A stretch of DNA of 38,157 bases from Candidatus Woesearchaeota archaeon (GTDB lineage: Archaea > Nanobdellota > Nanobdellia > SCGC-AAA011-G17 > ARS1178). Position 1 is the stretch's first letter. Each line of letters begins with the position of its first letter. Of this stretch, positions 1,947 to 31,189 are shown piece by piece. Location of the stretch: the NCBI GenBank assembly GCA_964367025.1, contig CAYIWE010000001.1, forward strand, positions 1-38,157, in the 5' to 3' direction. A model generated the notes under the pieces. The model was not told where the DNA came from. It did no database searches and was given only the letters and a program-made list of their open reading frames with translations. The position numbers and the translations under genes are program-made.

Positions 1947-3017
1947 TTAGTGTTCTTTTATTATTAATTTTCCTTTTTTTGCAATAAAAATAACTTCTTG
2001 GTCGTCTTTAAAAGTTGTGACTTTATTAATAACTTCTGGCAATTTTATGATTCCTGCTTTTACTTTTATGTTTGTTATCATTTCTTTTATTTCGTTTGAT
2101 TTTTCTACTTCCAATCCCTTAATAATTTTTTTGTAATCTGTCTCTTTTTGTTCTTTAAAAAAGTTGTTTGTTTGTTCTTTTAAAAATTTAGCAATTTCTA
2201 AAGCAATATCTTTTTTTGTTGCTTTTGCCAATCCTTGTATTCCTGGAGATAAGTTTGTTTCTATTACAACCGGTTTTCTGCCTTCTAAAATATCTATACC
2301 GCAAATATCTGCTTCTATTTTTTGGGCTGTTTTTATTGCTATTTCTTCTACTTCCTTGTCCACTTCATAATTTATTCCAATACCACCTCTATGAATATTT
2401 GCCCTTAATTCGTTTGGTTGGGCTTTTCTTTTCATTGCTGCAACAACTTTATCACCTAGAACTAAAACTCTTAAATCTGTGGCATTTGTTTCTATATACT
2501 CTTGGATAATATAAGGTTGTTTAAATACTTCTAAAGTATCTAGAATTGATTTTGCAGAAGTTATTGAATCTGCAAACATTATACCCTTGCCTTGTGTTCC
2601 TGAAGGAATTTTCATGATTATTGGGTAATGGACGTGTTCTAGTAATCTTTTTGCTCCTATTGTAGTTGCTGCTAAATAGGTAGTCGGTATTGGGATTTTT
2701 GATTTTTGTAATTCAAGTGCTGTTAGAAATTTATCGTGACCAACAAAGGATAGAGGTTTTAGTGGCATGTAAGCAGTGTGATTTTTTGCTAGGGTTATTG
2801 ATTTCTTAAGTGAAACATATTTGTAAGAACCTCTGATGTATAAACAATCAAAGTGTTCTAGTGGTTTTCCTTGATATGTTATATGAAGTCCATTTGAGGT
2901 TATATGAACCTCGATTTCTCTTATGTCAATACTTTTTGTCTTTGAAAAATGCTCTTTACATTTATTCAATATATCCTTACTGGAAGGACCACCCAAACTG
3001 ATCAATCCTAATTTCAT
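1947..3017 (-). CDS. RimK-family ATP-grasp ligase with a C-terminal extension of about 70 aa
   Basis: RimK-like ATP-grasp blocks: MKLGLISLGG, IIMKIPSGTQGKGI, IIQEYIE, DLRVLVLGDKVVAAMKR, CGIDILE, VIETNLSPG. Its start overlaps the stop of the retropepsin-like gene by 4 nt. Confidence 0.82.
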   Translation of the reverse strand: MKLGLISLGGPSSKDILNKCKEHFSKTKSIDIREIEVHITSNGLHITYQGKPLEHFDCLYIRGSYKYVSLKKSITLAKNHTAYMPLKPLSFVGHDKFLTALELQKSKIPIPTTYLAATTIGAKRLLEHVHYPIIMKIPSGTQGKGIMFADSITSAKSILDTLEVFKQPYIIQEYIETNATDLRVLVLGDKVVAAMKRKAQPNELRANIHRGGIGINYEVDKEVEEIAIKTAQKIEADICGIDILEGRKPVVIETNLSPGIQGLAKATKKDIALEIAKFLKEQTNNFFKEQKETDYKKIIKGLEVEKSNEIKEMITNIKVKAGIIKLPEVINKVTTFKDDQEVIFIAKKGKLIIKEH

Positions 3018-3431: not shown

Positions 3432-4199
3432 TTATATACATGCACCAGTATCACAGATTGTTGTTTCATTTCCTGCACAACTAGTTGTCATATTCCATCC
3501 CCTGTTTTGAAAACAATAGTATTCTAGCAATGTGGTGTTACTTACACAATAATCGGTGTTAGTGTAGTTAGTATCGTAGTAAGAACCACTAATAGTTCCC
3601 TGTATAGTATAATTTTGTCCATTATCAGTATCGCTACATGAGTTAGGGATTAAACTGTAATCAACCAAAGCATATACTTGTGCAACATAACCACCATAAG
3701 AAGATGTATATGTTCTCATCCCTGCTTCTAATGCATTAAGGTCTTGAACTGTCCATGAACTGCCTGTTGCTGGATTTGTACCATAGGTATAATAGTAGTA
3801 TGAGTAATTACTTCCAAGGTTAAAGAGCCAAGAAACATAATTTGTATTGTTGATTCTTAATAACGGTTGTATCTTGTAGTGTGTGGAGTCATATTGTTTT
3901 GAATAATAATACATTTTAAGATTGTATATAGTTGCTTCTGATAAACCAGTATCTGTAAACCCAAATGATTCTGCAGTTGCATTGCCATTTGAGTATAAGT
4001 AGTCTGCTGTATTTGCTGGATCTTCATCAACACAATCCCATTCAGATGTAGAATTACACCCAACATTATTCCAATTAGAGTATACTCCTTGGCTATTTGG
4101 TCGTAAAGTAATTGTTGCTGCATATACGCTTGTTGACAAAATTCCAATTGTTAATAGAACGACTAATAAAATACTATTTTTTGTTAAACTCAAAGACAT
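3432..4199 (-). CDS. Secreted Asn/Tyr-rich protein with a C-terminal Cys-rich module
   Basis: Signal peptide SILLVVLLTIGILSTSVYA, many N-x-S/T sequons, and a C-terminal SCSDTDNG ... TDYC ... LEYYC ... TGACI module. Confidence 0.65.
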   Translation of the reverse strand: MSLSLTKNSILLVVLLTIGILSTSVYAATITLRPNSQGVYSNWNNVGCNSTSEWDCVDEDPANTADYLYSNGNATAESFGFTDTGLSEATIYNLKMYYYSKQYDSTHYKIQPLLRINNTNYVSWLFNLGSNYSYYYYTYGTNPATGSSWTVQDLNALEAGMRTYTSSYGGYVAQVYALVDYSLIPNSCSDTDNGQNYTIQGTISGSYYDTNYTNTDYCVSNTTLLEYYCFQNRGWNMTTSCAGNETTICDTGACI

Positions 4200-5345: not shown

Positions 5346-6821
5346 GTGAGGTTTAAGGTCAGAGATATTGATATTTCTGCTGGTGATCTTTTTATTGTAC
5401 TTCTTAATAAGAAAGATGCAGATAAATTAAATTTAATAGCCTTGGATAGGGTAAGGATTAGAAATAAAAAAGAGATTATATGTGTAGTTGATATTTATGA
5501 GGGATGGAAAAAAGTTAAAGAGGGCGAAGTTGGTTTATTTGAAGAGGTTCTTAAAGAGATTGGAGTAAGAAATGGTGAAATTGTTGATGTTGTTCCTGTT
5601 GAAAAACCGATAATTTTAGAGTATATAAGAAAAAAATTAGATGGGAAAAACTTGGAAAGAGAAGAGATTAATGGAATTATAAAAAGTATTTTGAAAAATG
5701 AATTAACTGAAATTGAAAGAACTTATTTTGTTTCTGGGTGTTATGTTCATGGTTTAAGCTTAGACGAGAGTTATTATTTAACCATGGCTATTGTGAATAA
5801 CAGTAAAAGATTAGATTTTGGTAAAAAAATCATTGTTGATAAACATTCTATTGGTGGCGTTCCTGGGAATAGAACAACTATGATTGTTGTACCAATATTA
5901 GTAGCAGCTGGTTTAACTGTTCCTAAAACAAGCACAAGAAACATTACAAGTGTTAGCGGCACTAGTGATACTATGGAGGTTTTAGCTAAAGTTGATTTTA
6001 ATGCTAAAGAAATTAAGGAGATAGTTAATAAAGTAGGTGGTTGTATGGTTTGGGGTGGTGCATTGGAATTGGCAAGTGCTGATGACAGATTAATAAAAAT
6101 TGAGAGACCGTTAAGTTTAGACCCAAAGGGTATAATGTTGGCTAGTATAATGGCAAAAAAGAAGTCTGTTGGTGCTACTCATGTGATTATTGATTTGCCT
6201 TTTGGTGAGGGAAGTAAATTAAAAGATATGGGTGAGGCTATCAAATTAAAGAGTAAATTTATAGAATTGGGCGGGAAATTAGGGATTAAAGTTAAAATAA
6301 TGATTAGTGATGGTACACAACCTGTTGGAAATGGTGTTGGACCTTGTTTGGAATCTATTGATGTTTTAAATGTTTTACTGAATAAAGGACCTGAAGATTT
6401 AAAAGAAAAATCAATTAAAATGGCTAGTGATGTTTTTGAAATGTTGGGTTATAAAAATAGCAGAAAAAAAGCTTTGGAAATTTTAGAGAGTGGCAAGGCT
6501 TATGAAGCTATGGAAAGGATAATAAAAGCACAAAAAGGCAAGATATTTAGACCTGAACAAATAAAACTAGGTAAATTTAAATATAATGTAAAGGCTAAAA
6601 CAAAAGGCAGAGTAAAAAGTCTTGATAATAAGTTAATTAATAAAATTGGTATGGTTTTGGGTGCTCCTAGAGATAAAGGGGCTGGTATTTATTTTAATTT
6701 TAAGAAAAATAGTAAAGTTAATAAAAACGACTTATTGTTTACTTTATACTCAAATAGTGAAGAAAAGTTAAAAAATAGTTTAGAGATTTTAGAAAAAAAA
6801 AGTTTTATAAAGATAGAATAA
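5346..6821 (+). CDS. deoA: AMP phosphorylase (archaeal thymidine-phosphorylase-family enzyme of the AMP/RuBisCO pathway)
   Basis: GTG start directly after the preceding stop codon. It has the AMPpase-specific N-terminal domain (MRFKVRDIDISAGDLFIVLLNKKDADKL) plus HSIGGVPGN, PKTSTRNITSVSGTSD, VWGGALELASADD and SLDPKGIMLASIMAKK. Confidence 0.88.
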   Translation: MRFKVRDIDISAGDLFIVLLNKKDADKLNLIALDRVRIRNKKEIICVVDIYEGWKKVKEGEVGLFEEVLKEIGVRNGEIVDVVPVEKPIILEYIRKKLDGKNLEREEINGIIKSILKNELTEIERTYFVSGCYVHGLSLDESYYLTMAIVNNSKRLDFGKKIIVDKHSIGGVPGNRTTMIVVPILVAAGLTVPKTSTRNITSVSGTSDTMEVLAKVDFNAKEIKEIVNKVGGCMVWGGALELASADDRLIKIERPLSLDPKGIMLASIMAKKKSVGATHVIIDLPFGEGSKLKDMGEAIKLKSKFIELGGKLGIKVKIMISDGTQPVGNGVGPCLESIDVLNVLLNKGPEDLKEKSIKMASDVFEMLGYKNSRKKALEILESGKAYEAMERIIKAQKGKIFRPEQIKLGKFKYNVKAKTKGRVKSLDNKLINKIGMVLGAPRDKGAGIYFNFKKNSKVNKNDLLFTLYSNSEEKLKNSLEILEKKSFIKIE

Positions 6822-6943: not shown

Positions 6944-8785
6944 ATGATATCTAAAAAATTCATTCTAACTTTAGTAGGTATGCTAATTCTAGTTGGTTTA
7001 AGTCAAGTTGTTTTTGCTGAAGATTTTCTTGTACATGGAAATACAACATATAATATAACTAGTAGTACTGGTCCTGATAATTGGACTGCTGGTTATGGTT
7101 GTTTTGATAGTGAGGATGATTTTGCAGGTACAAATAATCATACTGGAACTTATGAGCTTAATATTACTTTGTTTAATAATGCTGATACAAATATAACTAA
7201 TATTAGTATTACTTTTGATATAAAATATCTTAATGTTAGTAATTTTGGTGCTGAGGACACTTTAACAAATATTACTATAAATTGTAGTGAAAATGGAACT
7301 GGTGATTTTGTAGATAATGATGCAGCAATTGGTTTTAATGCATCTCTTATTACAACTGATGGGGAAAATGTATACTTTGGTAATGCAAGTAGTGAATGGA
7401 CTAATTCAACTTTTATAGAAATAGGTATTCCTATATCAGTAAATTATAGTTATTGTGGTGAAGTAGTCAGTGAAATTGAGATAAGAACAATGAATGATAC
7501 AGTATCAATACATACCCTTAATCTCACAATAGGTGTTGATTCAAGTCCACCAACAATTAGGTTTTTAAACGCTACTGATGGTATTAATAATTTAAGTGAT
7601 GCTGCTGGTTCATTTAATGGTACTGATTGGTTATTAAATGGCAGCAATATTATCATAGTAATTGAAGCAGATGATAATAATAATGGCTGGGGTCTTACTA
7701 ATGATACAACATTGTGTTTTGCAAATAACAATGATACAGGTATAGAAAACTGTGTAGATAATGCAAATGTTGGAACAGTGGAAAGAACTAATGCAACTTC
7801 TCAACAAGCTTATAATACAACAAAAAACATATATCATTATGTTTTAGATGCAGCTAATTTCAGTAATGGTACTGGTGCAAATTTAAGCTTTGTATTGTGG
7901 GTTGAAGATGTATTTAATCACTCTAAAACATACAATAATACAGATATTTGGTATTCATTTAGGATGGATGGGGAAGATCCTACAACAAATTTAGTTTTAC
8001 CAGATGATACAACTATATTTACAAGAAGGTCAATAGAACTAAAATGTAATTACGCTGATGGTTATAGTGGAATAAATGGGAGTATTTTAAGAGTTACTAA
8101 ACCTGGTGGAGCTGCAACAGACTATAGTTTGGGTACTTCAGCAATAGCTCAAACATTAACTGATACTGACACATTAGCAGCAGGAACATATACTGCACAG
8201 TGTTTAACAGAAGATAATGTAGATCTGGCAGGTTCAAGTACTACAGGAACATTTACAGTATCTCACCAAGTTACTGCTAGTGGTAGTGCTGCTGCTGCTG
8301 CTCTGGGTGCAATTAGTGTTGATATGGACTTTTCAAAACAAGGTGTAACAAAAAGAACATTTGTTAAAACAAAAGGTAGTGCAATTGAGTTTAGTTTAGA
8401 TGGTAAAACAGAACACAAGATAACTGTGGACAGTATAGGTGAAAAAGATGTTAAATTGACAATAGCTTCAACACCTTCTGAAGCAAGCTTAGTTGTTGGA
8501 GAGAGTGTAGAAGTTGATGTTAATGAGGATGGTGTTAAAGATATAAAAGTTACATTAAAGAGTACAGAAATCTTAAAAGAACAAGCAACATTAGATGTAG
8601 AAAAGATTGAAGGGCAAGCTGTAACTAAACCAACAGTAGAGGAAACAGAAGAAGTAACTGGTGGTGAAGGAGTAACAGGTGAACCAAGTAGCAAAACAGG
8701 ATTGATGATAGCTATAGCAATAATATTGATAGGTATTATAGTCTACTTTTTGGTATTTGGTAAAAAGAAGAAAAAGAAGAGATAA
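6944..8785 (+). CDS. Large surface glycoprotein candidate with a C-terminal TM anchor and poly-Lys tail
   Basis: Signal peptide LTLVGMLILVGLSQVVFA and very many N-x-S/T sequons. C-terminal TM segment GLMIAIAIILIGIIVYFLVF followed by GKKKKKKR. SD GGAGGT lies upstream of the ATG. Confidence 0.75.
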   Translation: MISKKFILTLVGMLILVGLSQVVFAEDFLVHGNTTYNITSSTGPDNWTAGYGCFDSEDDFAGTNNHTGTYELNITLFNNADTNITNISITFDIKYLNVSNFGAEDTLTNITINCSENGTGDFVDNDAAIGFNASLITTDGENVYFGNASSEWTNSTFIEIGIPISVNYSYCGEVVSEIEIRTMNDTVSIHTLNLTIGVDSSPPTIRFLNATDGINNLSDAAGSFNGTDWLLNGSNIIIVIEADDNNNGWGLTNDTTLCFANNNDTGIENCVDNANVGTVERTNATSQQAYNTTKNIYHYVLDAANFSNGTGANLSFVLWVEDVFNHSKTYNNTDIWYSFRMDGEDPTTNLVLPDDTTIFTRRSIELKCNYADGYSGINGSILRVTKPGGAATDYSLGTSAIAQTLTDTDTLAAGTYTAQCLTEDNVDLAGSSTTGTFTVSHQVTASGSAAAAALGAISVDMDFSKQGVTKRTFVKTKGSAIEFSLDGKTEHKITVDSIGEKDVKLTIASTPSEASLVVGESVEVDVNEDGVKDIKVTLKSTEILKEQATLDVEKIEGQAVTKPTVEETEEVTGGEGVTGEPSSKTGLMIAIAIILIGIIVYFLVFGKKKKKKR

Positions 8786-8867
8786 ATTTTCTTTTTTTAT
8801 TTCTTAATTCTTTTATATATTTTTGATTATAGAAAATTATTTAAATTGTTATTAATAAAGAGTCTAT

Positions 8868-9383
8868 ATGAAAAAGATTTTGTTATTTATTGTATTTTTG
8901 ATTTTAATTCAGATCGTTATAGCTGGTGATATGTATAAAATAGATATTGAAAAAAATGACCAGACTTTTTTTACATTGAAAGAGAGAGATTTGATGAGGT
9001 TTGATTGGAAAGATAAGGAACATAAAATAATGGTAAGACAAATTAATGAAGACAAGAAAAGTGTTGATTTAACAATATATGTGGATGGTGCTCCTACACC
9101 ACAATATGTTAGTGTTTCTCCCACTCGGTTTGTAAAAGTTGATTTTGATTTAGATCGCATTGATGATTTACAAGTAAGGCTTGATTCCATTGAAGGAAGT
9201 AATGTAACTCTTGGATTAACAAAGATTAAAGAGGAGAAGATTAATAGTATAACTGGTAATGCAGTTAAAGACTTAAAAATAGATACTAAAATTGGGTGGA
9301 GTATTGTTGTTGGGATCATTGTTCTAGGATTAGTTGTTTATTCTTTTGTATTAAGAAAGGGTAGAAATAAGGATTTAGAATAA
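8868..9383 (+). CDS. Small secreted protein with a C-terminal TM anchor
   Basis: Signal peptide ILLFIVFLILIQIVIA and C-terminal TM segment WSIVVGIIVLGLVVYSFVL. Its central domain (EHKIMVRQI ... VDL ... VDFDLD) resembles the pre-anchor domain of the 613-aa protein. Confidence 0.62.
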   Translation: MKKILLFIVFLILIQIVIAGDMYKIDIEKNDQTFFTLKERDLMRFDWKDKEHKIMVRQINEDKKSVDLTIYVDGAPTPQYVSVSPTRFVKVDFDLDRIDDLQVRLDSIEGSNVTLGLTKIKEEKINSITGNAVKDLKIDTKIGWSIVVGIIVLGLVVYSFVLRKGRNKDLE

Positions 9384-9633: not shown

Positions 9634-9870
9634 TTATAATTCTATTTCGCCCCAGTTCCATGGCCTATTCAAAATTAGATGTTTGCATTCGCCTTTTAAT
9701 ACATTAATATTTTTGTTTTTTAGTTTATTAAAGTAGTAATCATCCTCTGAGTTATCAATTAAAAGCACTGAATAATTTTCATAAGTTAAATTGTTTATAG
9801 ATTGGGAATATTCTTCTAAACAATATTCTTGATACTTGGAAGTTGGACATCCAACTAAAATTTTAGGTTT
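9634..9870 (-). pseudogene. Start-less fragment resembling the N-terminus of a GT-A-fold (family-2-like) glycosyltransferase
   Basis: Minus-strand frame reads KILVGCPTSKYQEYCLEEYSQSINNLTYENYSVLLIDNSEDDYYFNKLKNKNINVLKGE..., ending at TAA (9636-9634). It has no ATG/GTG/TTG start. The frame overlaps the end of the methyltransferase gene and runs into the tRNA-Ser promoter region. Confidence 0.35.
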
Positions 9871-10453
9871 CGTTTTCAGACAAATAAATTCTATAACCTG
9901 TTTTTTTTGTTATGACTTTTAAATTTCCAAATATTTGTTCCATATATTCTGATAAATATTTCCCGCCTTTATTGTGTCTAGCCACTAGTTCTAATAAACC
10001 GTTTTTGTTTAAGTGCTCTTTTGCATGTTTGACCATATCTAAACATATTTCTTTTCCTGCTGTTTGCGGCGGGTTTATCAAAATTGTATCAAACTTTATA
10101 TTTTTTAATGGTTCGTATAAATTGCCTTGAATAACTTTTGCATTTCTTATGTTATTTATCTTTAAGTTTAACTCTGCTATTTGACATGCTCTTTTATTTA
10201 TATCTGTTAAATAAACATCCTCTTTTGTTAATTTTGATGCAACTAAACCAATTATACCGTAACCACAACCTAAATCAAGGGTTTTTCCCTTTATAACCAT
10301 ATTATCTATTAAAATTACTGTTCCTTTATCTATTCTTTTGGGTGAAAACATTCCAGAAGCAGTGTATATTTCAAAACTAAAATTTCTTAAATTTACTCTT
10401 AGTTTTTTTAGTTTTAGTTTTGATGTTTGGGTTTCAGAGTAGTAATGGGTCAT
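9863..10453 (-). CDS. Class I SAM-dependent methyltransferase (MTS-domain, RsmC/RsmD-like)
   Basis: Motif I LDLGCGYGIIGL, the DIN motif (LTDINKRA) and ILINPPQ (NPPx motif of N-methyltransferases). Its start overlaps the upstream gene stop by 4 nt. Confidence 0.8.
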   Translation of the reverse strand: MTHYYSETQTSKLKLKKLRVNLRNFSFEIYTASGMFSPKRIDKGTVILIDNMVIKGKTLDLGCGYGIIGLVASKLTKEDVYLTDINKRACQIAELNLKINNIRNAKVIQGNLYEPLKNIKFDTILINPPQTAGKEICLDMVKHAKEHLNKNGLLELVARHNKGGKYLSEYMEQIFGNLKVITKKTGYRIYLSENET

Positions 10454-11037
10454 TTCATAACACCTAATAAAGTTAATATTAATCTGTCTGTTAATTTGAT
10501 TAAATCATCTTCATTTTTTGCTTCTATTATAATACAGTATCTATCTCTATAAATTTTATTTTCTTCTTTATCGTGTTCTAAATCAATCACAGTTACCAAA
10601 TAATTAGAATCATTGCAAGTTTTGATTGGTGCTTCCCCACCCGGTTTTGTTAAAGTATTTTCTGTTCTTATTTTAAAAACTCCCCAATCTGGGTGTAATC
10701 CTAAAACTTTACTCAAGTGCATCATTGCTATAGATGTTTTTCCTGTTCCGTTTGGGTCTGTTGTTATGAATACCTGAGTTGAATTTAAGACTATATTTTT
10801 TATAGAATCATCAAAAGTAATGTTCTCTTTTTCTAAACTTCTTGGATCATATCTTAAGTCTACTAATACAACTCTCTCTTTTTTTCCTGTTTCTTCCAAG
10901 AAAACTGTGGCTGCCCAACCATACTGATTTTTAGTTATTGTAAATCCATTATACTCATACCTATCACTTCTTCCAAAGCAACCACTGATAAAAATTAGAG
11001 ATAATATTAAAAACAAAAATAGTATCTTTTTATTCAT
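10450..11037 (-). CDS. Lipoprotein-like secreted protein, paralog of 11034-11624
   Basis: Signal peptide with lipobox-like LIFISGC. It shares the PIKTC ... Y..(N/R)(C/YC)(L/I)II ... D(K/R)L(L/I)L motifs with the upstream gene. Confidence 0.6.
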   Translation of the reverse strand: MNKKILFLFLILSLIFISGCFGRSDRYEYNGFTITKNQYGWAATVFLEETGKKERVVLVDLRYDPRSLEKENITFDDSIKNIVLNSTQVFITTDPNGTGKTSIAMMHLSKVLGLHPDWGVFKIRTENTLTKPGGEAPIKTCNDSNYLVTVIDLEHDKEENKIYRDRYCIIIEAKNEDDLIKLTDRLILTLLGVMK

Positions 11038-11624
11038 TTTTCTATTAACATATCGAGAAGTAATTTATCTATTTTCTTTGTTATTTCCTGGTTATTTCCT
11101 TGAATTATAAGGCAGTTTTCAGAGTAAAAAATTTCTTGTTCTTGTGATTGCTTAAATAAGATTATTTTTTGTTGTGTTGTAGCATCTTTACAGGTTTTTA
11201 TTGGTATATTTGGACACTGTTCATTCTCTTCTGAACATGAGTTTATTAATGGAGTATTCAGGAATTGTTGTAGATTCCCTAATAATTCAATTTGCATATA
11301 ATTTGTGGTTTCTTTGTAATTTCTTGTGACATATATTTTCTGTGCTGAGTTTAAATCATTTAAAAAAACTTTTGGGATTTGTATTTGTTCTAGATCTTTT
11401 GGGTTAGAAGATATCATTATTGGTTTATTGTCTATATAAGTTAACCATTTATCATTTGCTTTTGAAAATGTTTTTTGTTTATACTGGGTTCTTTCATCTT
11501 CTGTTTCTCTTACAACTACAAAGCCAAGGACACTAAATACCATTAAAAAAATGATTATTATGGCCATTAATAATCTTGATTTGTTAGAACTGACATTTCT
11601 TGGACTCTTAAATTTTTGTTTCAT
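11034..11624 (-). CDS. N-terminally anchored extracytoplasmic protein, paralog of 10450-11037
   Basis: TM segment LLMAIIIIFLMVFSVLGFVVV. C-terminal motifs PIKTCKD and ENCLIIQGNNQEITKKIDKLLLDML parallel PIKTCND and RYCIIIEAKNEDDLIKLTDRLILTLL in the next gene. Confidence 0.6.
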   Translation of the reverse strand: MKQKFKSPRNVSSNKSRLLMAIIIIFLMVFSVLGFVVVRETEDERTQYKQKTFSKANDKWLTYIDNKPIMISSNPKDLEQIQIPKVFLNDLNSAQKIYVTRNYKETTNYMQIELLGNLQQFLNTPLINSCSEENEQCPNIPIKTCKDATTQQKIILFKQSQEQEIFYSENCLIIQGNNQEITKKIDKLLLDMLIEK

Positions 11625-14111: not shown

Positions 14112-14170
14112 GTCTAAGACACCTCCGTCTTTTACACGAATTTTTATTTTAATAAATAAATTTTCTGATT

Positions 14171-14215
14171 GTCCTATTAGAAGGACTTGCCTCTCTTTTA
14201 TCCTATTAGAAGGAC
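14171..14215 (-). promoter_or_regulatory. Two copies of the palindromic 15-16-mer GTCCTTCTAATAGGA(C) in the S-layer gene leader
   Basis: Copies lie at 14171-14186 and 14201-14215, with starts 30 nt apart. Each can form a 5-bp stem (GUCCU/AGGAC) with a 6-nt loop. They sit between candidate TATA boxes and the SD. Confidence 0.45.
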
Positions 14216-14240
14216 GTATTTATATAATTAATAACCTCGG

Positions 14241-14254
14241 TATTTAAAGCTTTT
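14241..14254 (-). promoter_or_regulatory. Candidate BRE/TATA of the S-layer gene (AAAAGCTTTAAATA on the minus strand)
   Basis: The core is the same as in the promoters of the five-paralog array (AAAAGCTTTAAATATT at 17837, 19513, 20064). A second TATA-like stretch lies at 14217-14232. Confidence 0.45.
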
Positions 14255-17677: not shown

Positions 17678-17828
17678 AGCCCCGTAGTGTAGCGGTCAAA
17701 TAATCCTACCTCTTTTTTGAATAGGATAGACAAATCATGGTGCCCTTTGGAGGCATCGACGGAGGTTCGAATATAAGGATTGCATCCTTATCAACCTGCA
17801 ATCTTTTAAGGAAATCCTCCCGGGGCTA
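17678..17828 (+). tRNA. tRNA-Gln(UUG) with two non-canonical introns (D-loop and T-loop)
   Basis: Acceptor stem AGCCCCG/CGGGGCU with discriminator A73. D-arm GUGU-AGCGGUCAAA[intron ~17701-17734]UCAU. Anticodon arm GUGCC-CUUUGGA-GGCAU. T-arm GGAGG-UUCGAA[intron ~17772-17814]U-CCUCC. TATA-like TTTTTAAAA lies about 30 nt upstream. Confidence 0.74.
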
Positions 17829-17910
17829 TTTTTTAATAAAAAGCTTTAAATATTAGGAAATTTTATTATGCAATAAGCTTGGACTAAAAAACAAGAGAGG
17901 TGTTTAGATA

Positions 17911-18339
17911 ATGGCTAAAGCTAAAAAGGTTGAGAAAACAAATAATAAAAATTTAATAACAATAGTTCTTTTGATTGTTGCAGGCATAGTTATTTTAGGT
18001 TATACAAATAACATAGGAAATGTTGCTAAAGGAGATTTGGCAAAACTTACTGTTACCAAAAGCGAGGGTAGTTCTACTGCTACAATAAAGATTGATGCAG
18101 GACATTACGGTGTTCAAAGATTTTATGAAGTTCTTGGTCCTGATAAAAAACTAGCATCTAATGGTAGGAATACACTTTGCAATGCCAATACTCTTTGTAC
18201 GGGTTCTATTAAAAAGAACATTGGAATTCAACAAAGTTGGAGACAAAAACCAGGAATTTATACGGTTAAAGTGTATGATAAAAACAGAGAAAGAGCTGGT
18301 GAAGATCCATATATAACAGCCACTTTTAGGGTTCCATAA
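17911..18339 (+). CDS. Signal-anchored small surface protein, tandem family member 1
   Basis: N-terminus MAKAKKVEKTNNKNLITIVLLIVAGIVILGYTN. Ectodomain motifs GHYG, C-x5-C and KPGIYTVKVYDKNRERAG ... FRV. Confidence 0.75.
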   Translation: MAKAKKVEKTNNKNLITIVLLIVAGIVILGYTNNIGNVAKGDLAKLTVTKSEGSSTATIKIDAGHYGVQRFYEVLGPDKKLASNGRNTLCNANTLCTGSIKKNIGIQQSWRQKPGIYTVKVYDKNRERAGEDPYITATFRVP

Positions 18340-18433
18340 ACTGTTTTCTTTTTTATTTTTAAATAAAAAGTGTTAAATATTAGAAGAGATTTTTATTAAG
18401 TAAATTATGATAATTAAAAGGGGTGTTTAGATA

Positions 18434-18904
18434 ATGGCTAAAGCTAAAAAGGTTGAGAAAACAAATAATAAAAATTTAATAACAATAGTTCTTTTGATTG
18501 TTGCAGGCATAGTTATTTTAGGTTATACAAATAGTACTGGTTTCGTTGGTAAGGGTGAGGGGATTAAGTTGTCCAGTGTAAAAGTAGTACCTAGGTTTAA
18601 TTGGGATGATGAAATTAATCCGGGTGATTATATTACAATTAAATTTAAACCAGGAACATATGGTTATGAAGGGTATTATGAAATATTTAAAAAAGGAAAT
18701 CCTGACAAAAGAGTAGTTGGTCGTACAAAAATATCTGCTGTTTCTGGATGTAGTATGACTTGTAAAAAAGAATGGGACCAGGGTGTTAAGACAAGTGATT
18801 GGAAACCTGGAATTTACTATGTGAAAGTATATGATAAAAGCAGAGCAAGAAGTGGTGCTGTAGGAGATGAGAGGTATATAAAAGCTGAATTTGAAGTTGT
18901 TTAA
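18434..18904 (+). CDS. Signal-anchored small surface protein, tandem family member 2
   Basis: Same N-terminal 35 aa as the other members. Ectodomain motifs GTYGYEGYYEIFKKG, GCSMTC and WKPGIYYVKVYDKSRARSG ... FEV. Confidence 0.75.
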   Translation: MAKAKKVEKTNNKNLITIVLLIVAGIVILGYTNSTGFVGKGEGIKLSSVKVVPRFNWDDEINPGDYITIKFKPGTYGYEGYYEIFKKGNPDKRVVGRTKISAVSGCSMTCKKEWDQGVKTSDWKPGIYYVKVYDKSRARSGAVGDERYIKAEFEVV

Positions 18905-18991
18905 TATTTTTTATTTCTAAATAAAAAGTGTTAAATATTAGAAGAGATTTTTATTAAGTAAATTATGATAATTAAAAGGGGTGTTTAGATA

Positions 18992-19489
18992 ATGGCTAAA
19001 GCTAAAAAGGTTGAGAAAACAAATAATAAAAATTTATTAACAATAGTTCTTTTGATTGTTGCAGGCATAGTTATTTTAGGTTATACAAATAGTACTGGAC
19101 GTAGTGTTAGTAATCAGTATTCTAGTGTAAAAATAAGTCCAAATACAATTTATGAGGGCGAGGTATTTAAAATATTATTAGAATCGGGTAAATACGGTTA
19201 TGATGATGATTTTGAGATATATAAAGTTGATTATACAACAAATTCACGTGGTGAAAAAGTTAGGAGTGATAACTTTTTGATTAGACAAAAAATAAGCGGG
19301 TGTAGTGGTGTTTGTAAAAAAGATGTAGTATTTAATTATAAGTCAATGATAAGTTGGAAAGGTACAGAAGAGGGAGCAGAGTATTATATAAAAGTATATG
19401 ACAAAAGCAGAGAGAGAGCAGGAAAAACTGGTGAAGATAGATATATGAAATATTCGTTTTTTATTAAGACAAAAGAGCCTACTCTTTAA
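18992..19489 (+). CDS. Signal-anchored small surface protein, tandem family member 3
   Basis: Same N-terminal cassette. Ectodomain motifs GKYGYDDDFEIYKVD, GCSGVC and YYIKVYDKSRERAG. Confidence 0.75.
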   Translation: MAKAKKVEKTNNKNLLTIVLLIVAGIVILGYTNSTGRSVSNQYSSVKISPNTIYEGEVFKILLESGKYGYDDDFEIYKVDYTTNSRGEKVRSDNFLIRQKISGCSGVCKKDVVFNYKSMISWKGTEEGAEYYIKVYDKSRERAGKTGEDRYMKYSFFIKTKEPTL

Positions 19490-19580
19490 GTTTTCTTTTT
19501 TATTTTTAAATAAAAAGCTTTAAATATTAGGAAATTTTATGATGGTTAATAGTCTTAAAAAAAGAATAAGAGGTGTTTAG

Positions 19581-20012
19581 ATGATGGCTAAAGCTAAAAA
19601 GGTTGAGAAAACAAATAATAAAAATTTGATAACCATAGTTCTTTTGATTGTTGCAGGTATAGTTATTTTGAGTTATACCAATAGTACTGGTTTCGTGAGT
19701 AAAGAAGGAAAAACAAAAATAATGGTTTCAGCAGCAAATCCCCCAGAGATTAATGCTGGAGAAGAAATATATATAACTATTGAACCGGGTGTTAAAGGTT
19801 ATGATGGTAATACTTTAGACCTCTATCAAAAAGGAACTTTAGGAAAGAAGACCATAGCAGCTGAAGTGAAGGTACAGTACTGTGGTTCTACGTGTAAAGA
19901 AAAAAGAACTTTAAAATATAGAACTTCAACTAGTTGGAGTGGTACATATTATGCAAGTGTAAAGGACTTAAGTACTAAGAAGGTAGTAGAAACTAGTTTT
20001 AGAGTCTTATAA
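19581..20012 (+). CDS. Signal-anchored small surface protein, tandem family member 4
   Basis: Same N-terminal cassette with an ATGATG start. Ectodomain motifs GVKGYDGN, YCGSTC and YYASVKD ... FRV. Confidence 0.75.
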   Translation: MMAKAKKVEKTNNKNLITIVLLIVAGIVILSYTNSTGFVSKEGKTKIMVSAANPPEINAGEEIYITIEPGVKGYDGNTLDLYQKGTLGKKTIAAEVKVQYCGSTCKEKRTLKYRTSTSWSGTYYASVKDLSTKKVVETSFRVL

Positions 20013-20133
20013 TTAAGTAATTCTTTTTTATTATATTTTTTAATTTATCTTGTTTTTTTAACAAAAAGCTTTAAATATTAGAAGAAATTTATTGAGTTAG
20101 TTAATGATTTAATAAAATAGACGAGGTGTTTAG

Positions 20134-20607
20134 ATGATGGTTAAAGCTAAAAAGGTTGAGAAAACAAATAATAAAAATTTATTAACAATAGTTCTTTTGA
20201 TTGTTGCAGGCATAGTTATTTTGAGTTACACTAATAGTACTGGTTTCGTTACTAAAAGTACGAGAGGAGTAACAACAGTAGAAGTCAGTCCAACAGATGT
20301 AGGAAGTGGTGATATTCTTCTTGTGGGTGTTAAGGCTGGTGCAAAGGGTTATAGTAACCCATTAGAAATTTGGAAAGTTGATTATGCTGATATTAATGAT
20401 GATGGTATTTATAGTGAAAGTGAAAGAAGAGATAATAAAGTAGTCGATATAAAAACTGCATATTGTGGACCTATTTGTACTAAAGATGCAAGTGGAAGAA
20501 GTATAATAAAATATAAAGTAACTACATTGAAAAAAGGAGAATATTACGTAAAAACCACTGATATTGGCACAGGTAATAAAATAAAAGTTTACTTTGATGT
20601 TGTTTAA
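20134..20607 (+). CDS. Signal-anchored small surface protein, tandem family member 5
   Basis: Same N-terminal cassette (MMVKAKKVEK...). Ectodomain motifs GAKGYSNPLEIWKVD, YCGPIC and EYYVKTTD ... FDV. Confidence 0.75.
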   Translation: MMVKAKKVEKTNNKNLLTIVLLIVAGIVILSYTNSTGFVTKSTRGVTTVEVSPTDVGSGDILLVGVKAGAKGYSNPLEIWKVDYADINDDGIYSESERRDNKVVDIKTAYCGPICTKDASGRSIIKYKVTTLKKGEYYVKTTDIGTGNKIKVYFDVV

Positions 20608-28834: not shown

Positions 28835-31189
28835 TTATGATATCCTAAATCTTAAAATTGCTGCAATTCCGCCCAAATCCCTTAATTGAACGCCTTCTCT
28901 TGATTGAACAGAGATTATTTGTAAATGGGTGTGTGTTTGTTCTGCTAATTCTTCTAATTGATCTACTGAAGATTCTTCCACTGATTCAGAAATTAAGAGT
29001 GTATCTACTGCACCTAATTCCAATGCTTTTTTAACCTCTGTAATACCATAAGCTGTTTTTTCGGGTTCTTTTGAGAGTAATTCAAGAAATTTCCCCATTA
29101 TTTCTTTTTCCTGCATTATCTCTTCTTTTATTAACAAATCCCTGCTTTTCTCAACTAATTCCTGTAAACCAAACTCACCAGTGTAGGATAAATCAAAAAT
29201 ACCTATGATCTTTTCCTTTAATTGATTATTTATAGAGTGACCATCTACAAATTCATTTTTTGTTTGTCCGGGTCCACCCACTATTATTCCTTTTAACTCT
29301 TTCATTGGCAAGAATTCTTTATTTACAATTTCTCCAATCCTTTTATAGAATTCTTTTGCTGCTATTTCTCTTAATGATTCAAAACGTTTTGCTGAATTAT
29401 GGACAATTAGACCGTTTGCTATGAAGTTTTGGTTTTTTACTGAAATATCTACCATTTTTGTTAGTTTGTTTGTTATTTGAATGTCTTTAATTTTTACTGG
29501 AATCAATTGATATTGTAGAATTTTGCTTAATTTATTTTTTAGGTTTTTATTTGTTATTTTATCTAAAATTGATGTTTTAAATGCTTGTTTGCTTATTTTT
29601 CTTTTACCTTGTAAAAACATATTTGCTGTTAAGAAATCTCTATGGATAATATAACCTTCTTGTTCAAGAATTTTTCTTATTTCTGTTCCTAAAGGTATTA
29701 TCTGTCTATTAAAACTTTTATATTGTTTTTTTGATATTTCTTTTATTGCTAATTCTAATTTGTTTTTCTTTTTTGAGTATGTAAATCCTATTTTTTCATT
29801 GAAGATTTTTAAAGAATGTATATCTGAAACGTCTATGGAATATCTTATGTTGTTTGAATAGGGATTTCTTCTATTGTCATAGGTTAATAATGAAGACAGT
29901 ATTCCGAATCTTAATAATACAAATTGCAGTTGTTGTGCAAGTAATTTATTATTTACACCTAAACCTATTCTGTTTCTTGAAACATAACCCTCGGCATCAA
30001 AGAATCCTTTTAAGAATGTTGCAACTATTTTGTTTTTTGATTTTAAGATCTTAGAAGGCATTAAAGATTCTTTTGAAGTAGTAATTTCTGGAAATTCTTT
30101 TTTGAATAATTTAACTAATTCTCTTGAATATGTTCTTATAAGGTAATAATTTTTAGTTTTTCTAAATCTTAATGTTGTATTTATTTTTAAAGCTTTTATT
30201 ATTTTTTCTTGATAGTATTTTGCTATTTCTTTGTCTCTTTCATGAAAATTTAGTCTATCTATTTCATAAGAACCATCACCTAAAAAATAGCCAAGTATTT
30301 GAGCAATATCTTTAGGTAATATTTTATTTCCAAAATTTTGGTTTTCTCCTTTAATTTCTATTTTTTCTGGTATTAATAAATAATCCCCAATTTTTAATTC
30401 CTCTGCTGGTTTTTCTTTAATTATATCTTCTCTTACAAAGAACAAATGGTCTTTTGAAGTCTGAATTTCTGTTCTTGGGTGTTTTGTAATAATCTTGTAA
30501 ACTTGGGATTTTTTAGTTTCCCATTTATCTGTAATTGGAGAATCTTCTATTTGAAAATTTGAAAGGTCTGCTGTTTTTAGAATGTAAGGATTATGGGAAT
30601 CTTTTATTTGAATTATTTCTCCATTGTTTGCTTGTATCAAGGTATCTGGAATAATACACTGACCACCAGCGCGACTCTTTCCTGGAACACCAGAAGTTAG
30701 ATGCGCAATTTCATTTATTTGGGTTCCTTTTAATAAACCAACACACCCATCTCTTCTGTCCATAACAACCAAACCATAAAGTTGTTTGGATTCTATCATT
30801 TCAATTAATGGGTCAAGAACAAAAGTTTGATCACACCTGTAAATTCTAATTTTTAGTGGTTTTGGCGGTTCTATTGAAAAAACTTCGATGTGAACTTTAT
30901 TATCTGATTCCGAAATGTTTCCAGAAAACACTGCTAAACCGTTTTTGGGGGTTTTATCAACTAAACGCAAATGCCTAATCAATCTTTCTAGAGAATCAAT
31001 AACGTGTGTTCTTGTTGCTTTATCTTTTATGTTAGAGGCTGTTCCCTGTTCCTGTGCCAAATGATTTATAATTTTATTTAAATCGTAACCTTCAGGAATA
31101 TAAACAGAGACTAATTCAGTATGCCTTCCTCTAAAAGAAGATAATTCTTTTATGAATTTTTTAAATTTGTATTTTTCTTTTGAATCCAT
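28835..31189 (-). CDS. prf1: Peptide chain release factor aRF1, interrupted by an intein
   Basis: Extein motifs TASNIKD (NIKS region), YRCDQTF (YxCxxxF) and GKSRAGGQ|...|SAKRFESLR (GGQ). The combined extein is 177+186 aa. Confidence 0.9.
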   Translation of the reverse strand: MDSKEKYKFKKFIKELSSFRGRHTELVSVYIPEGYDLNKIINHLAQEQGTASNIKDKATRTHVIDSLERLIRHLRLVDKTPKNGLAVFSGNISESDNKVHIEVFSIEPPKPLKIRIYRCDQTFVLDPLIEMIESKQLYGLVVMDRRDGCVGLLKGTQINEIAHLTSGVPGKSRAGGQCIIPDTLIQANNGEIIQIKDSHNPYILKTADLSNFQIEDSPITDKWETKKSQVYKIITKHPRTEIQTSKDHLFFVREDIIKEKPAEELKIGDYLLIPEKIEIKGENQNFGNKILPKDIAQILGYFLGDGSYEIDRLNFHERDKEIAKYYQEKIIKALKINTTLRFRKTKNYYLIRTYSRELVKLFKKEFPEITTSKESLMPSKILKSKNKIVATFLKGFFDAEGYVSRNRIGLGVNNKLLAQQLQFVLLRFGILSSLLTYDNRRNPYSNNIRYSIDVSDIHSLKIFNEKIGFTYSKKKNKLELAIKEISKKQYKSFNRQIIPLGTEIRKILEQEGYIIHRDFLTANMFLQGKRKISKQAFKTSILDKITNKNLKNKLSKILQYQLIPVKIKDIQITNKLTKMVDISVKNQNFIANGLIVHNSAKRFESLREIAAKEFYKRIGEIVNKEFLPMKELKGIIVGGPGQTKNEFVDGHSINNQLKEKIIGIFDLSYTGEFGLQELVEKSRDLLIKEEIMQEKEIMGKFLELLSKEPEKTAYGITEVKKALELGAVDTLLISESVEESSVDQLEELAEQTHTHLQIISVQSREGVQLRDLGGIAAILRFRIS
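29396..30658 (-). mobile_element. 421-aa intein with a LAGLIDADG homing endonuclease domain, inserted after GGQ of aRF1
   Basis: Cys1 (CIIPDTLIQ) lies directly after GGQ. Block B is TSKDHLFFV. LAGLIDADG motifs are LGYFLGDGS and LKGFFDAEGYV. The C-terminal LIVHN is followed by Ser+1 (SAKRF). The codons were checked at 30658-30656 (TGT), 29398-29396 (AAT) and 29395-29393 (TCA). Confidence 0.85.

Follow-up and report, generated by a model that had tools for sequence, protein, structure and literature searches.

In small-genome archaea of the kind studied here, surface proteins are regarded as biologically central. Here, we have analysed a 38,157-nt stretch of the genome of a Candidatus Woesearchaeota archaeon (contig CAYIWE010000001.1 of assembly GCA_964367025.1, positions 1 to 38,157; we refer to this whole stretch as the window), in which five tandem genes encode small proteins that share an almost identical N-terminal segment and carry divergent ectodomains. 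We argue that the near-identity of the 5' ends of these genes very probably reflects concerted evolution by interlocus gene conversion, which is, as a whole, the best explanation of the locus, because the 5' blocks of paralogues within a genome are closer to each other than those of orthologues, the phylogenies of block and ectodomain are incongruent, and the variants are mosaic. The comparison with related genomes supports the view that the shared 5' ends come neither from recent duplication nor from a function at the nucleotide level.

The array consists of five plus-strand open reading frames (ORFs) of 142-165 amino acids (17911-18339, 18434-18904, 18992-19489, 19581-20012 and 20134-20607), which lie where a preliminary description of this DNA had placed five same-strand genes. 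A repeat search found a 192-nt repeat family with five copies at 17826, 18349, 18907, 19499 and 20052, and none elsewhere in the window. Identities of the individual segments were taken as the mean over pairs among the five copies, each anchored on codon 2. The 23-nt core that contains the transcription factor B recognition element (BRE) and the TATA box, AAAAAG[CT][TG]TTAAATATTAG, has a mean identity of 0.90, the 21-nt region with the Shine-Dalgarno (SD) site, G[AG]GGTG, and the start codon has 0.87, and codons 2-36 (105 nt) have 0.94. Identity is then 0.37 in the first 45 nt past codon 36 and 0.30 in the second 45 nt, the latter being the value obtained for random 45-mers from the array region (0.30 +/- 0.07). 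The sharp boundary of the cassette is real. The invariant block of 175-190 nt described earlier holds for the TATA core, the SD site and codons 2-36, but not for the TATA-to-SD spacer of ~30-35 nt, which is variable except in copies 2 and 3. These two copies are identical upstream as had been noticed, although the identity covers 74 nt upstream of the ATG rather than 73, and a further 45 nt downstream are also identical. In copies 4 and 5, a second ATG (19584 and 20137) is probably the start codon, as it is this ATG that lines up with the start codons of copies 1-3 and, in a related genome, with a GTG start codon. Past the cassette, the protein skeleton pointed out before (G..G, a Cys pair, Y, D and F) is the same as the invariant columns of our alignment.

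Only 19 close relatives were found among 5.8 billion proteins, and each is orthologous to one of the five types of array protein. Their contigs (L numbers below; P numbers denote related proteins) come from groundwater metagenomes (Hainich H43 and Rifle). L004, an independent assembly, differs from the window at 2 of 3007 nt, both in the same homologous codon of the block, codon 16, in copy 3 (position 19037, TTA vs ATA) and in copy 5 (position 20182). L001 and L002 from the Rifle aquifer contain the five types in the same order, between tRNA and Bud32-like kinase/gyrB genes, and the Rifle array was recovered in both the JGI and the ENA assemblies. L013, a more distant genome, shares the left flank and has three or more array genes (types 1b, 2 and 3), and L009, L010, L007, L011 and L012 contribute single array genes or pairs. 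Amino acid identity of the ectodomains is 61-89% between orthologues and 25-47% between paralogues, and a neighbour-joining tree of the ectodomains clusters by type. Orthologues of type 1 are found in L002 (gene 1, 78%) and L003 (gene 1, 66%), those of type 2 are 77-83% identical, those of type 3 are L002 gene 3 (89%), L010 and L013 gene 3, and those of type 4 are L002 gene 4 (88%) and the more distant P0020, while the orthologues of type 5 are only 61% identical. Since the types are syntenic and the tree follows type, the five paralogues must have existed before these genomes diverged, and the array is a stable one. The type-4 orthologue P0020 (L011/L012) has kept the ectodomain with a wholly different leader (MGGGEKSIGDIIKEFKNKNLL...), and is apparently a copy that escaped homogenisation.

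The comparison with related genomes, which the preliminary description had proposed, thus returned the same five orthologues, but with divergence that is non-uniform along the gene, as the block follows the genome and the ectodomain follows the type. Over the 90-nt coding block, the mean number of differences is 2.87 for paralogues within a genome, 9.64 for orthologues and 9.66 for non-orthologues between genomes, and the block clusters by genome, not by orthologue (p = 1e-4 in a shuffle of genome labels). The three paralogues of L013 have blocks that are 0-1 nt apart and share ~12 substitutions relative to the window, several of which are synonymous (TTA, GCT, ATT and GTG codons); their three 5' untranslated regions (5'UTRs) are mutually unrelated despite the near-identical coding blocks. 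The synonymous states ACA at codon 17 and GGC at codon 25 are present only in window copies 1, 2, 3 and 5, and ACC/GGT is found in copy 4 and in all copies from other genomes. That copy 4 retains the ACC/GGT/TTG-AGT states of the other genomes indicates that the ACA/GGC variant has not overwritten it. Nonsynonymous (dN) and synonymous (dS) divergence were estimated by the Nei-Gojobori method. Among window copies 1-3, the dS of the block is 0, and it is 0.28-0.40 against their own orthologues; the dS of the ectodomains among paralogues is ~1-2 (saturated). For all orthologue pairs, the dS of the block (0.10-0.53) stands beside that of the ectodomain (0.26-0.66), which shows that the block is not itself under strong constraint as a nucleotide sequence. 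An exchange limited to the 5' cassette, by gene conversion or recombination, had been put forward from the sequence of the window, and it is borne out by blocks that group by genome instead of by orthologue and by synonymous states that are shared among the paralogues of a genome.

Mosaic blocks are also seen in individual genes. The GTT-AAG states occur in both L009 genes, and GCG-ATT occurs in the type-2 gene of L009 and the type-3 gene of L010. In L009 and L010, the same type-3 ectodomain is found with two different blocks, one of which has the GCG-ATT and GTA states of the type-2 gene of L009. Both of these mosaics fit inside one assembly 127-141-mer, and assembly joins are therefore unlikely to be their cause. 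Moreover, the edge of the tract shifts by a few codons: GGTTTTGTAAGTAAAGA is common to types 2 and 4 in L002, and GGTTTCGT to types 2, 4 and 5 in the window, and the protein P0002 has a type-3-like 'GRSVSN' junction joined to a type-2 ectodomain.

We propose that recurrent non-reciprocal recombination among the tandem copies, possibly with unequal crossing-over too, would overwrite the segment coding for the signal peptide, and in some pairs the promoter and 5'UTR may be overwritten as well. The conversion tracts would stop near codons 36-38, where the copies beyond could be too diverged to sustain homologous pairing, and selection beyond this boundary would act on the distinct mature proteins as well. 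The five genes are monocistronic, each with its own near-consensus BRE/TATA promoter, a strong SD site and a T-rich terminator.

Several observations weigh against gene conversion as the explanation. All relatives are contigs from short-read metagenomes, and repeats can confuse assemblers; two contigs that look like deletions (L005 and L003) have their junctions inside the block and may be chimeras. Homogenisation is patchy: over the 90-nt block, window copy 4 is 1 difference from its orthologue and 5-6 from its neighbours. The upstream regions mostly follow orthology, the pair of copies 2 and 3 excepted. In addition, the dN of the block is low, and purifying selection on the signal peptide contributes, so that conversion is not the sole force.

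The N-terminus of the array proteins has an n-region from M1 to N14 (14 residues, lysine-rich, net positive), an h-region from L15 to L29 (~15 residues) and a polar c-region, GYTNSTG. Read by eye, this places a small residue at both -3 (S) and -1 (G), but position -3 is taken by large hydrophobic residues in relatives, which is atypical. The dimensions of the segment are like those of the evident signal peptides of the window, which belong to the S-layer-like protein and to the ORFs at 6944 and 3432. An [IFLM]-[TS]-G motif is found near residue 29, after an uncharged stretch of ~16 amino acids, in 107 of the 113 small relatives, its G is the sole invariant column of a 35-sequence alignment, and the end of the cassette coincides with this family-wide motif. 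Judging from the position of the motif, the small residues at -1 and -3 and the likeness to the evident signal peptides of the genome, the T/S-G motif is most likely a Sec signal-peptidase site, and we slightly prefer a Sec signal peptide that is cleaved to the signal anchor proposed earlier. The array proteins, if cleaved, would be secreted or part of the envelope. We rejected a lipoprotein, as the lipobox Cys is absent and there is no cysteine in residues 1-90 of any copy.

The N-terminal module (basic leader, NK-x-L, ~16 hydrophobic residues and T/S-G motif) is common to ~190 representative sequences, which are mostly small proteins with N-termini of the archaeal type. It is conceivable that this module is not just a generic signal peptide, and that it directs the sorting or assembly of a surface structure of these archaea that is as yet undescribed, being dedicated to this role. 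The array would then be homogenised by selection so that one machinery could handle or co-assemble five immunoglobulin (Ig)-like heads, and recombination of the cassettes would also give real copy-number or promoter-swap variants, such as those of L005, L003 and the P0002 type. We consider this proposal doubtful.

Programmed or high-frequency shuffling, in which the 5' blocks serve as recombination handles for copy-number or phase variation of surface proteins, is improbable. It could account for L005, which equals the window minus 1081 bp and has its junction in the block, where the promoter and block of copy 1 are joined to the type-3 ectodomain (copies 1-2 lost), for L003, which joins a type-2-like promoter to a type-4 ectodomain with the junction again in the block, and for the type-3-like junction (GRSVSN) on the type-2 ectodomain of P0002. 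However, the coverage of L005 is 3x, and at the repeat L003 passes from one co-occurring strain to another, which is what a chimeric assembly would look like; the junctions of both contigs are equally expected from unequal recombination or from an assembler at a repeat. The full five-gene order is found in independent assemblies from two aquifers (the window, L004, L001 and L002), the ectodomains are mostly under purifying selection, and a recombinase or invertase gene was not seen nearby among the ORFs of the window. Phase-variable homopolymers were rejected as well, since only A5-A6 runs are present. The ectodomains as targets of a diversity-generating retroelement were also considered and rejected: they are without repeats, inspection of the window gave no reverse transcriptase-like ORF, and their divergence is global, not adenine-confined.

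The array proteins could instead be subunits like type IV pilins or archaellins, with a class III signal peptide and an assembly helix that are kept alike so that five heads co-polymerise in one filament. The general layout of a pilin, an N-terminal helix followed by a beta-sandwich, is seen in the predicted structures, the family has a conserved 'NK-x-L' ahead of the hydrophobic stretch, and Haloferax volcanii provides a precedent in its six PilA pilins, whose H-domain is almost fully conserved (PMC4371748). Copy 4 gives a weak match to the Pfam family Arch_flagellin (PF01917) over residues 17-126 (E = 0.16; 12.7 bits vs a cut-off of 29.5), and the other copies have no match. A prepilin-peptidase site has G/A/S at -1 and a charged residue at -2, ahead of the H-domain (PMC4371748). 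In the array, the residue at -1 is N (...N-N-K-N|L-I-T-I-V), and it is K in the wider family (typically D-N-K|x-L), against the requirement for G/A/S (PMC4371748). The hydrophobic stretch is short, ~15-17 residues, and no pilin or archaellin family is over threshold in Pfam, NCBIfam or PDB sequences; all NCBIfam hits fell far short of their cut-offs. Genes for PilB, PilC and the peptidase are absent from the 38-kb window and from the surroundings of the single-copy relative P0038, but the pilA genes of H. volcanii are unlinked too. Taken together, these observations make pilin-like subunits quite unlikely. A likeness to the archaellin segment 'INTSGFLQQK' was rejected as a claim of membership, since the -1 rule and the profile matches fail.

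The repeated block could itself be a functional element of DNA or mRNA, for instance a regulatory RNA structure, a binding site for a small RNA or a protein, or a recombination site. Its synonymous sites are identical among the copies within a genome, and the promoter core and SD site are shared too, which is why the preliminary description offered a constraint at the nucleic-acid level as an alternative. This suggestion did not hold up. The synonymous sites of the block do change between genomes, with orthologue dS in the range given above, and in L013 the coding block is identical although the three 5'UTRs ahead of it are unrelated. There is no conspicuous RNA structure: the folding energies of 5'UTR plus block are no better than those of shuffled sequences (RNAfold, z -0.48 to +2.26), RNAalifold gave a consensus of -2.6 kcal/mol with only one covarying pair for 15 copies, and an Rfam search gave no relevant match. 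We regard such a function as very unlikely; the weakly structured 5' end of the array genes fits efficient translation initiation rather than a riboregulator.

An artefact or a trivial cause (assembly collapse, recent whole-gene duplication, or purifying selection on the protein without exchange) is scarcely credible: short-read metagenome assemblies are error-prone at repeats, and selection acts on signal peptides (the dN of the block within genomes is 0-0.05), but the window and L004 agree at 3005 of 3007 nt, the JGI and ENA assemblies of Rifle give the same array, copy-specific differences inside the block are preserved, the paralogues are older than the divergence of at least three genomes, and selection on the protein gives no reason why the copies of one genome should have synonymous states in common that are different in other genomes.

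Table 1. Coordinates of the cassettes, the ectodomains and the upstream boundary of the array in the window.
Feature	Position	Strand	Remarks
tRNA-Gln(UUG), upstream boundary of the array	17679-17828	+	two non-canonical introns; left flank kept in L002, L003, L004, L005 and L013
Copy 1 cassette	17836-18018	+	BRE/TATA 17836-17858; variable spacer; SD/start 17893-17913 (GAGGTG, ATG 17911); codons 2-36 17914-18018, ending ...YTNNIG
Type-1 ectodomain and stop	18019-18339	+	predicted Ig-like beta-sandwich, C-x5-C pair
Copy 2 cassette	18363-18541	+	BRE/TATA 18363-18385; SD/start 18416-18436; codons 2-36 18437-18541
Type-2 ectodomain	18542-18904	+	predicted beta-sandwich, C-x3-C pair
Copy 3 cassette	18921-19099	+	BRE/TATA 18921-18943; SD/start 18974-18994; codons 2-36 18995-19099
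Type-3 ectodomain	19100-19489	+	orthologues in L002, L010 and L013
Copy 4 cassette	19510-19691	+	BRE/TATA 19510-19532; SD/start 19566-19586; likely start 19584; codons 2-36 19587-19691
Type-4 ectodomain	19692-20012	+	orthologue L002 gene 4
Copy 5 cassette	20061-20244	+	BRE/TATA 20061-20083; SD/start 20119-20139; likely start 20137; codons 2-36 20140-20244
Type-5 ectodomain	20245-20607	+	fastest-evolving type, with indels

The ectodomains comprise ~100-130 amino acids and are predicted to form a different small beta-sandwich in each gene, closed by a Cys-x3-5-Cys loop. We modelled two of the proteins with AlphaFold2. In both models, a helix for the hydrophobic segment is followed by a disordered linker (residues 29-47 in copy 2) and a confident beta-sandwich, which covers residues 45-156 in copy 2 (model m33e45ba78d9b; predicted local distance difference test (pLDDT) score 82-93) and residues 46-157 in copy 5 (model md57b7081bb4c; pLDDT 82-97). 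The Cys pair is nearly invariant (C-x3-C here, x4-x6 in relatives), and it probably closes a loop by a disulfide. Searches of Pfam, NCBIfam and PDB sequences with the five proteins and their small relatives gave nothing over threshold, and GEVED was a borderline match in multi-domain relatives only (P0025, 39.7 bits). Foldseek comparison of the two models with PDB and BFVD returned only generic matches of the Ig, Fn3, macroglobulin (MG), CARDB and TapA-like kinds, with a template modelling (TM) score of at most 0.56; the best, at TM 0.4-0.56, were CARDB (3idu), TapA (8aif), the MG domain of alpha2-macroglobulin (2p9r) and the C-terminal Fn3-like domain of a glycoside hydrolase of family 3. The fold similarity of the modelled ectodomains is generic and gives no function, and the likeness to CARDB, Big, Fn3, GEVED, TapA and macroglobulin-type domains is at the level of the fold only, without membership in a sequence family. 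The ectodomain family had not been recognised at the outset, and profile and structure searches likewise led to no known family beyond a generic beta-sandwich.

When 1.84 billion representative proteins were searched with a profile, 190 relatives came out at E <= 1e-3, and most of these are 125-160 amino acids long and have the same layout; some larger exported relatives contain 2-9 tandem copies of the domain. One distant member of the family, P0038 (L015 8001-8414; L015-L017), is encoded between truD and ftsY in another archaeon. It is present as a single copy on 22 contigs, which shows that arrays are not the only arrangement of this family and that its members are widespread in these aquifers.

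The ectodomains had been described as diversifying, and this is true of a part of them only. Types 1-4 have dN/dS of 0.13-0.27 in most orthologue pairs (0.17-0.27 between the window and L002), which points to purifying selection on these types. By type, dN/dS is 0.27-0.58 for type 1 (0.43-0.58 in comparisons involving L003), 0.17-0.23 for type 2, 0.13-0.23 for type 3, 0.20 for type 4 and 0.52-0.77, plus indels, for type 5. What stands of the earlier description is that type 5, and type 1 against L003, evolve fast; what does not is diversification of the array as a whole, which consists of five old orthologous lineages in fixed order. On these estimates, the locus appears to encode five proteins that are all maintained and not redundant, with fast evolution in one or two of them, and not a rapidly diversifying repertoire. 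The reading of the proteins as diversifying adhesins for contact with a host is unsupported. Moreover, a domain of ~100 amino acids on a linker of ~10 residues would, if anchored, be near the membrane, which would argue against direct contact with a host across an S-layer.

Expression signals were compared with those of other genes in the window. The 16-mer promoter core recurs, with two mismatches, upstream of the S-layer-like gene (14239-14254, minus strand; PF05124, E = 1.8e-17), whose SD context, GGAGGTGTCTTAGACATG, is like that of the array genes. The promoter core is in this sense shared with the S-layer gene as proposed, but it looks like the generic strong BRE/TATA consensus of the genome and not like a special element. 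Genes led by an SD site in the window are the S-layer-like gene, the ORFs 6944-8785 and 3432-4199 (signal-peptide proteins), the five array genes and the operon-internal 5346-6821, and the housekeeping genes are mostly without one, suggesting a genome with two classes of translation initiation. A strong, GGAGGTG-like SD site together with a long 5'UTR is seen at the starts at 4199 (-), 6944 (+), 14111 (-) and 17911-20134 (+), and the housekeeping genes without an SD site are possibly leaderless. The near-consensus promoter and strong SD site, which within the window the array has in common only with other genes for secreted proteins, would fit high expression of the array genes. In the 5'UTR of the S-layer-like gene (~100 nt; 14150-14215, minus strand), there are two direct copies of GTCCTTCTAATAGGA, each of which can fold into a small hairpin (TCCT...AGGA).

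The window has 30% GC and contains archaeal informational genes, a form-III-like RuBisCO and an AMP-phosphorylase-like gene, the S-layer-like protein, SRP54/FtsY, gyrase and aRF1, a gene content that fits a groundwater archaeon of the DPANN type. The promoter of copy 1 begins 8 nt past the 3' end of the tRNA-Gln, and the array ends downstream at a convergent gene for a Bud32/RIO-type kinase. The exons of the tRNA-Gln(UUG) lie at 17679-17699, 17735-17771 and 17814-17828, with introns in the D-loop (~35 nt) and in the T-loop (~42 nt). This tRNA was missed by ARAGORN, even with intron options, and by Rfam; after splicing by hand, a clean fold of tRNA-Gln is obtained. In the tRNA-Gln of L013 (about 1500-1660), the first intron is elsewhere, after nt 9, and the D-loop intron is absent; intron positions therefore turn over between close relatives. 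The aRF1-like gene (28835-31189, minus strand) encodes 784 amino acids, ~2x the usual size, and has a central insert in which LAGLIDADG-like motifs (LGYFLGDGS) were seen by eye in the translation; the insert is probably an intein. Further ORFs with N-termini like signal peptides and no Pfam match are found at 9863-11624 (-), 1479-1898, 3432-4199 and 6944-9383, and include two adjacent genes of ~195 amino acids, an N-x-S/T-rich protein of 613 amino acids with a C-terminal anchor and small cysteine-rich proteins. Uncharacterised envelope proteins are abundant in the window.

The closest mechanistic analogue that we found is the lpl tandem cluster of Staphylococcus aureus. There, a conserved intra-ORF segment is the site of homologous recombination, the flanks have incongruent phylogenies, and strains differ by rearrangements (Tsuru and Kobayashi 2008, PMC2568036). 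The lpl cluster and the array are alike in being tandem paralogues for exported proteins with a conserved nucleotide segment in every ORF. They differ in that the lpl segment is central in the ORF and the evolving unit reaches from the 3' end of one gene through the intergenic region into the 5' end of the following gene, whereas here the segment is at the 5' end (signal peptide, sometimes together with promoter and 5'UTR) and the order of types is fixed; the array proteins, moreover, lack a lipobox cysteine, are of an unrelated family and come from an archaeal host. In outcome, the closest archaeal analogue is PilA1-PilA6 of H. volcanii (PMC4371748), which are likewise small archaeal surface proteins with a conserved N-terminal hydrophobic domain and divergent C-terminal domains. 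Those pilins are processed by PibD, have G/A/S at -1 and are scattered in the genome, whereas the array fails the -1 rule, has a shorter hydrophobic stretch, is in tandem and is homogenised at the nucleotide level. Concerted evolution is defined by homogeneous stretches in which paralogues are more alike than orthologues (PMC2720389), and the CEACAM family is an example with Ig domains (PMC7042247). The diagnostic pattern in these cases is the same as ours, but they are eukaryotic, and the tract here is ~100-190 nt long and limited to the signal peptide and expression signals.

The locus is an archaeal case of an already known evolutionary process, in an uncharacterised and fairly widespread family of small beta-sandwich proteins. 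It provides a well-resolved natural example of gene conversion that would be confined to a signal-peptide/expression cassette of ~100-190 nt, next to mature domains that remain distinct over long periods. To our knowledge, there are few if any reports of such cassette-confined conversion from archaea, and none from DPANN-like lineages. A literature search of incomplete coverage found no archaeal case of it, and no description of this protein family or of such a cassette in DPANN-like archaea. We would like to point out that near-identical 5' ends in metagenome-assembled genomes are no proof of recent duplication and that they are also hotspots for chimeric contigs, which calls for caution in annotation. 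The array would gain in interest if sorting or assembly turned out to be the dedicated role of the N-terminal module, or if the recombinant variants were real. As the small beta-sandwich family has no Pfam model and has a strikingly conserved N-terminal motif, it merits definition as a family.

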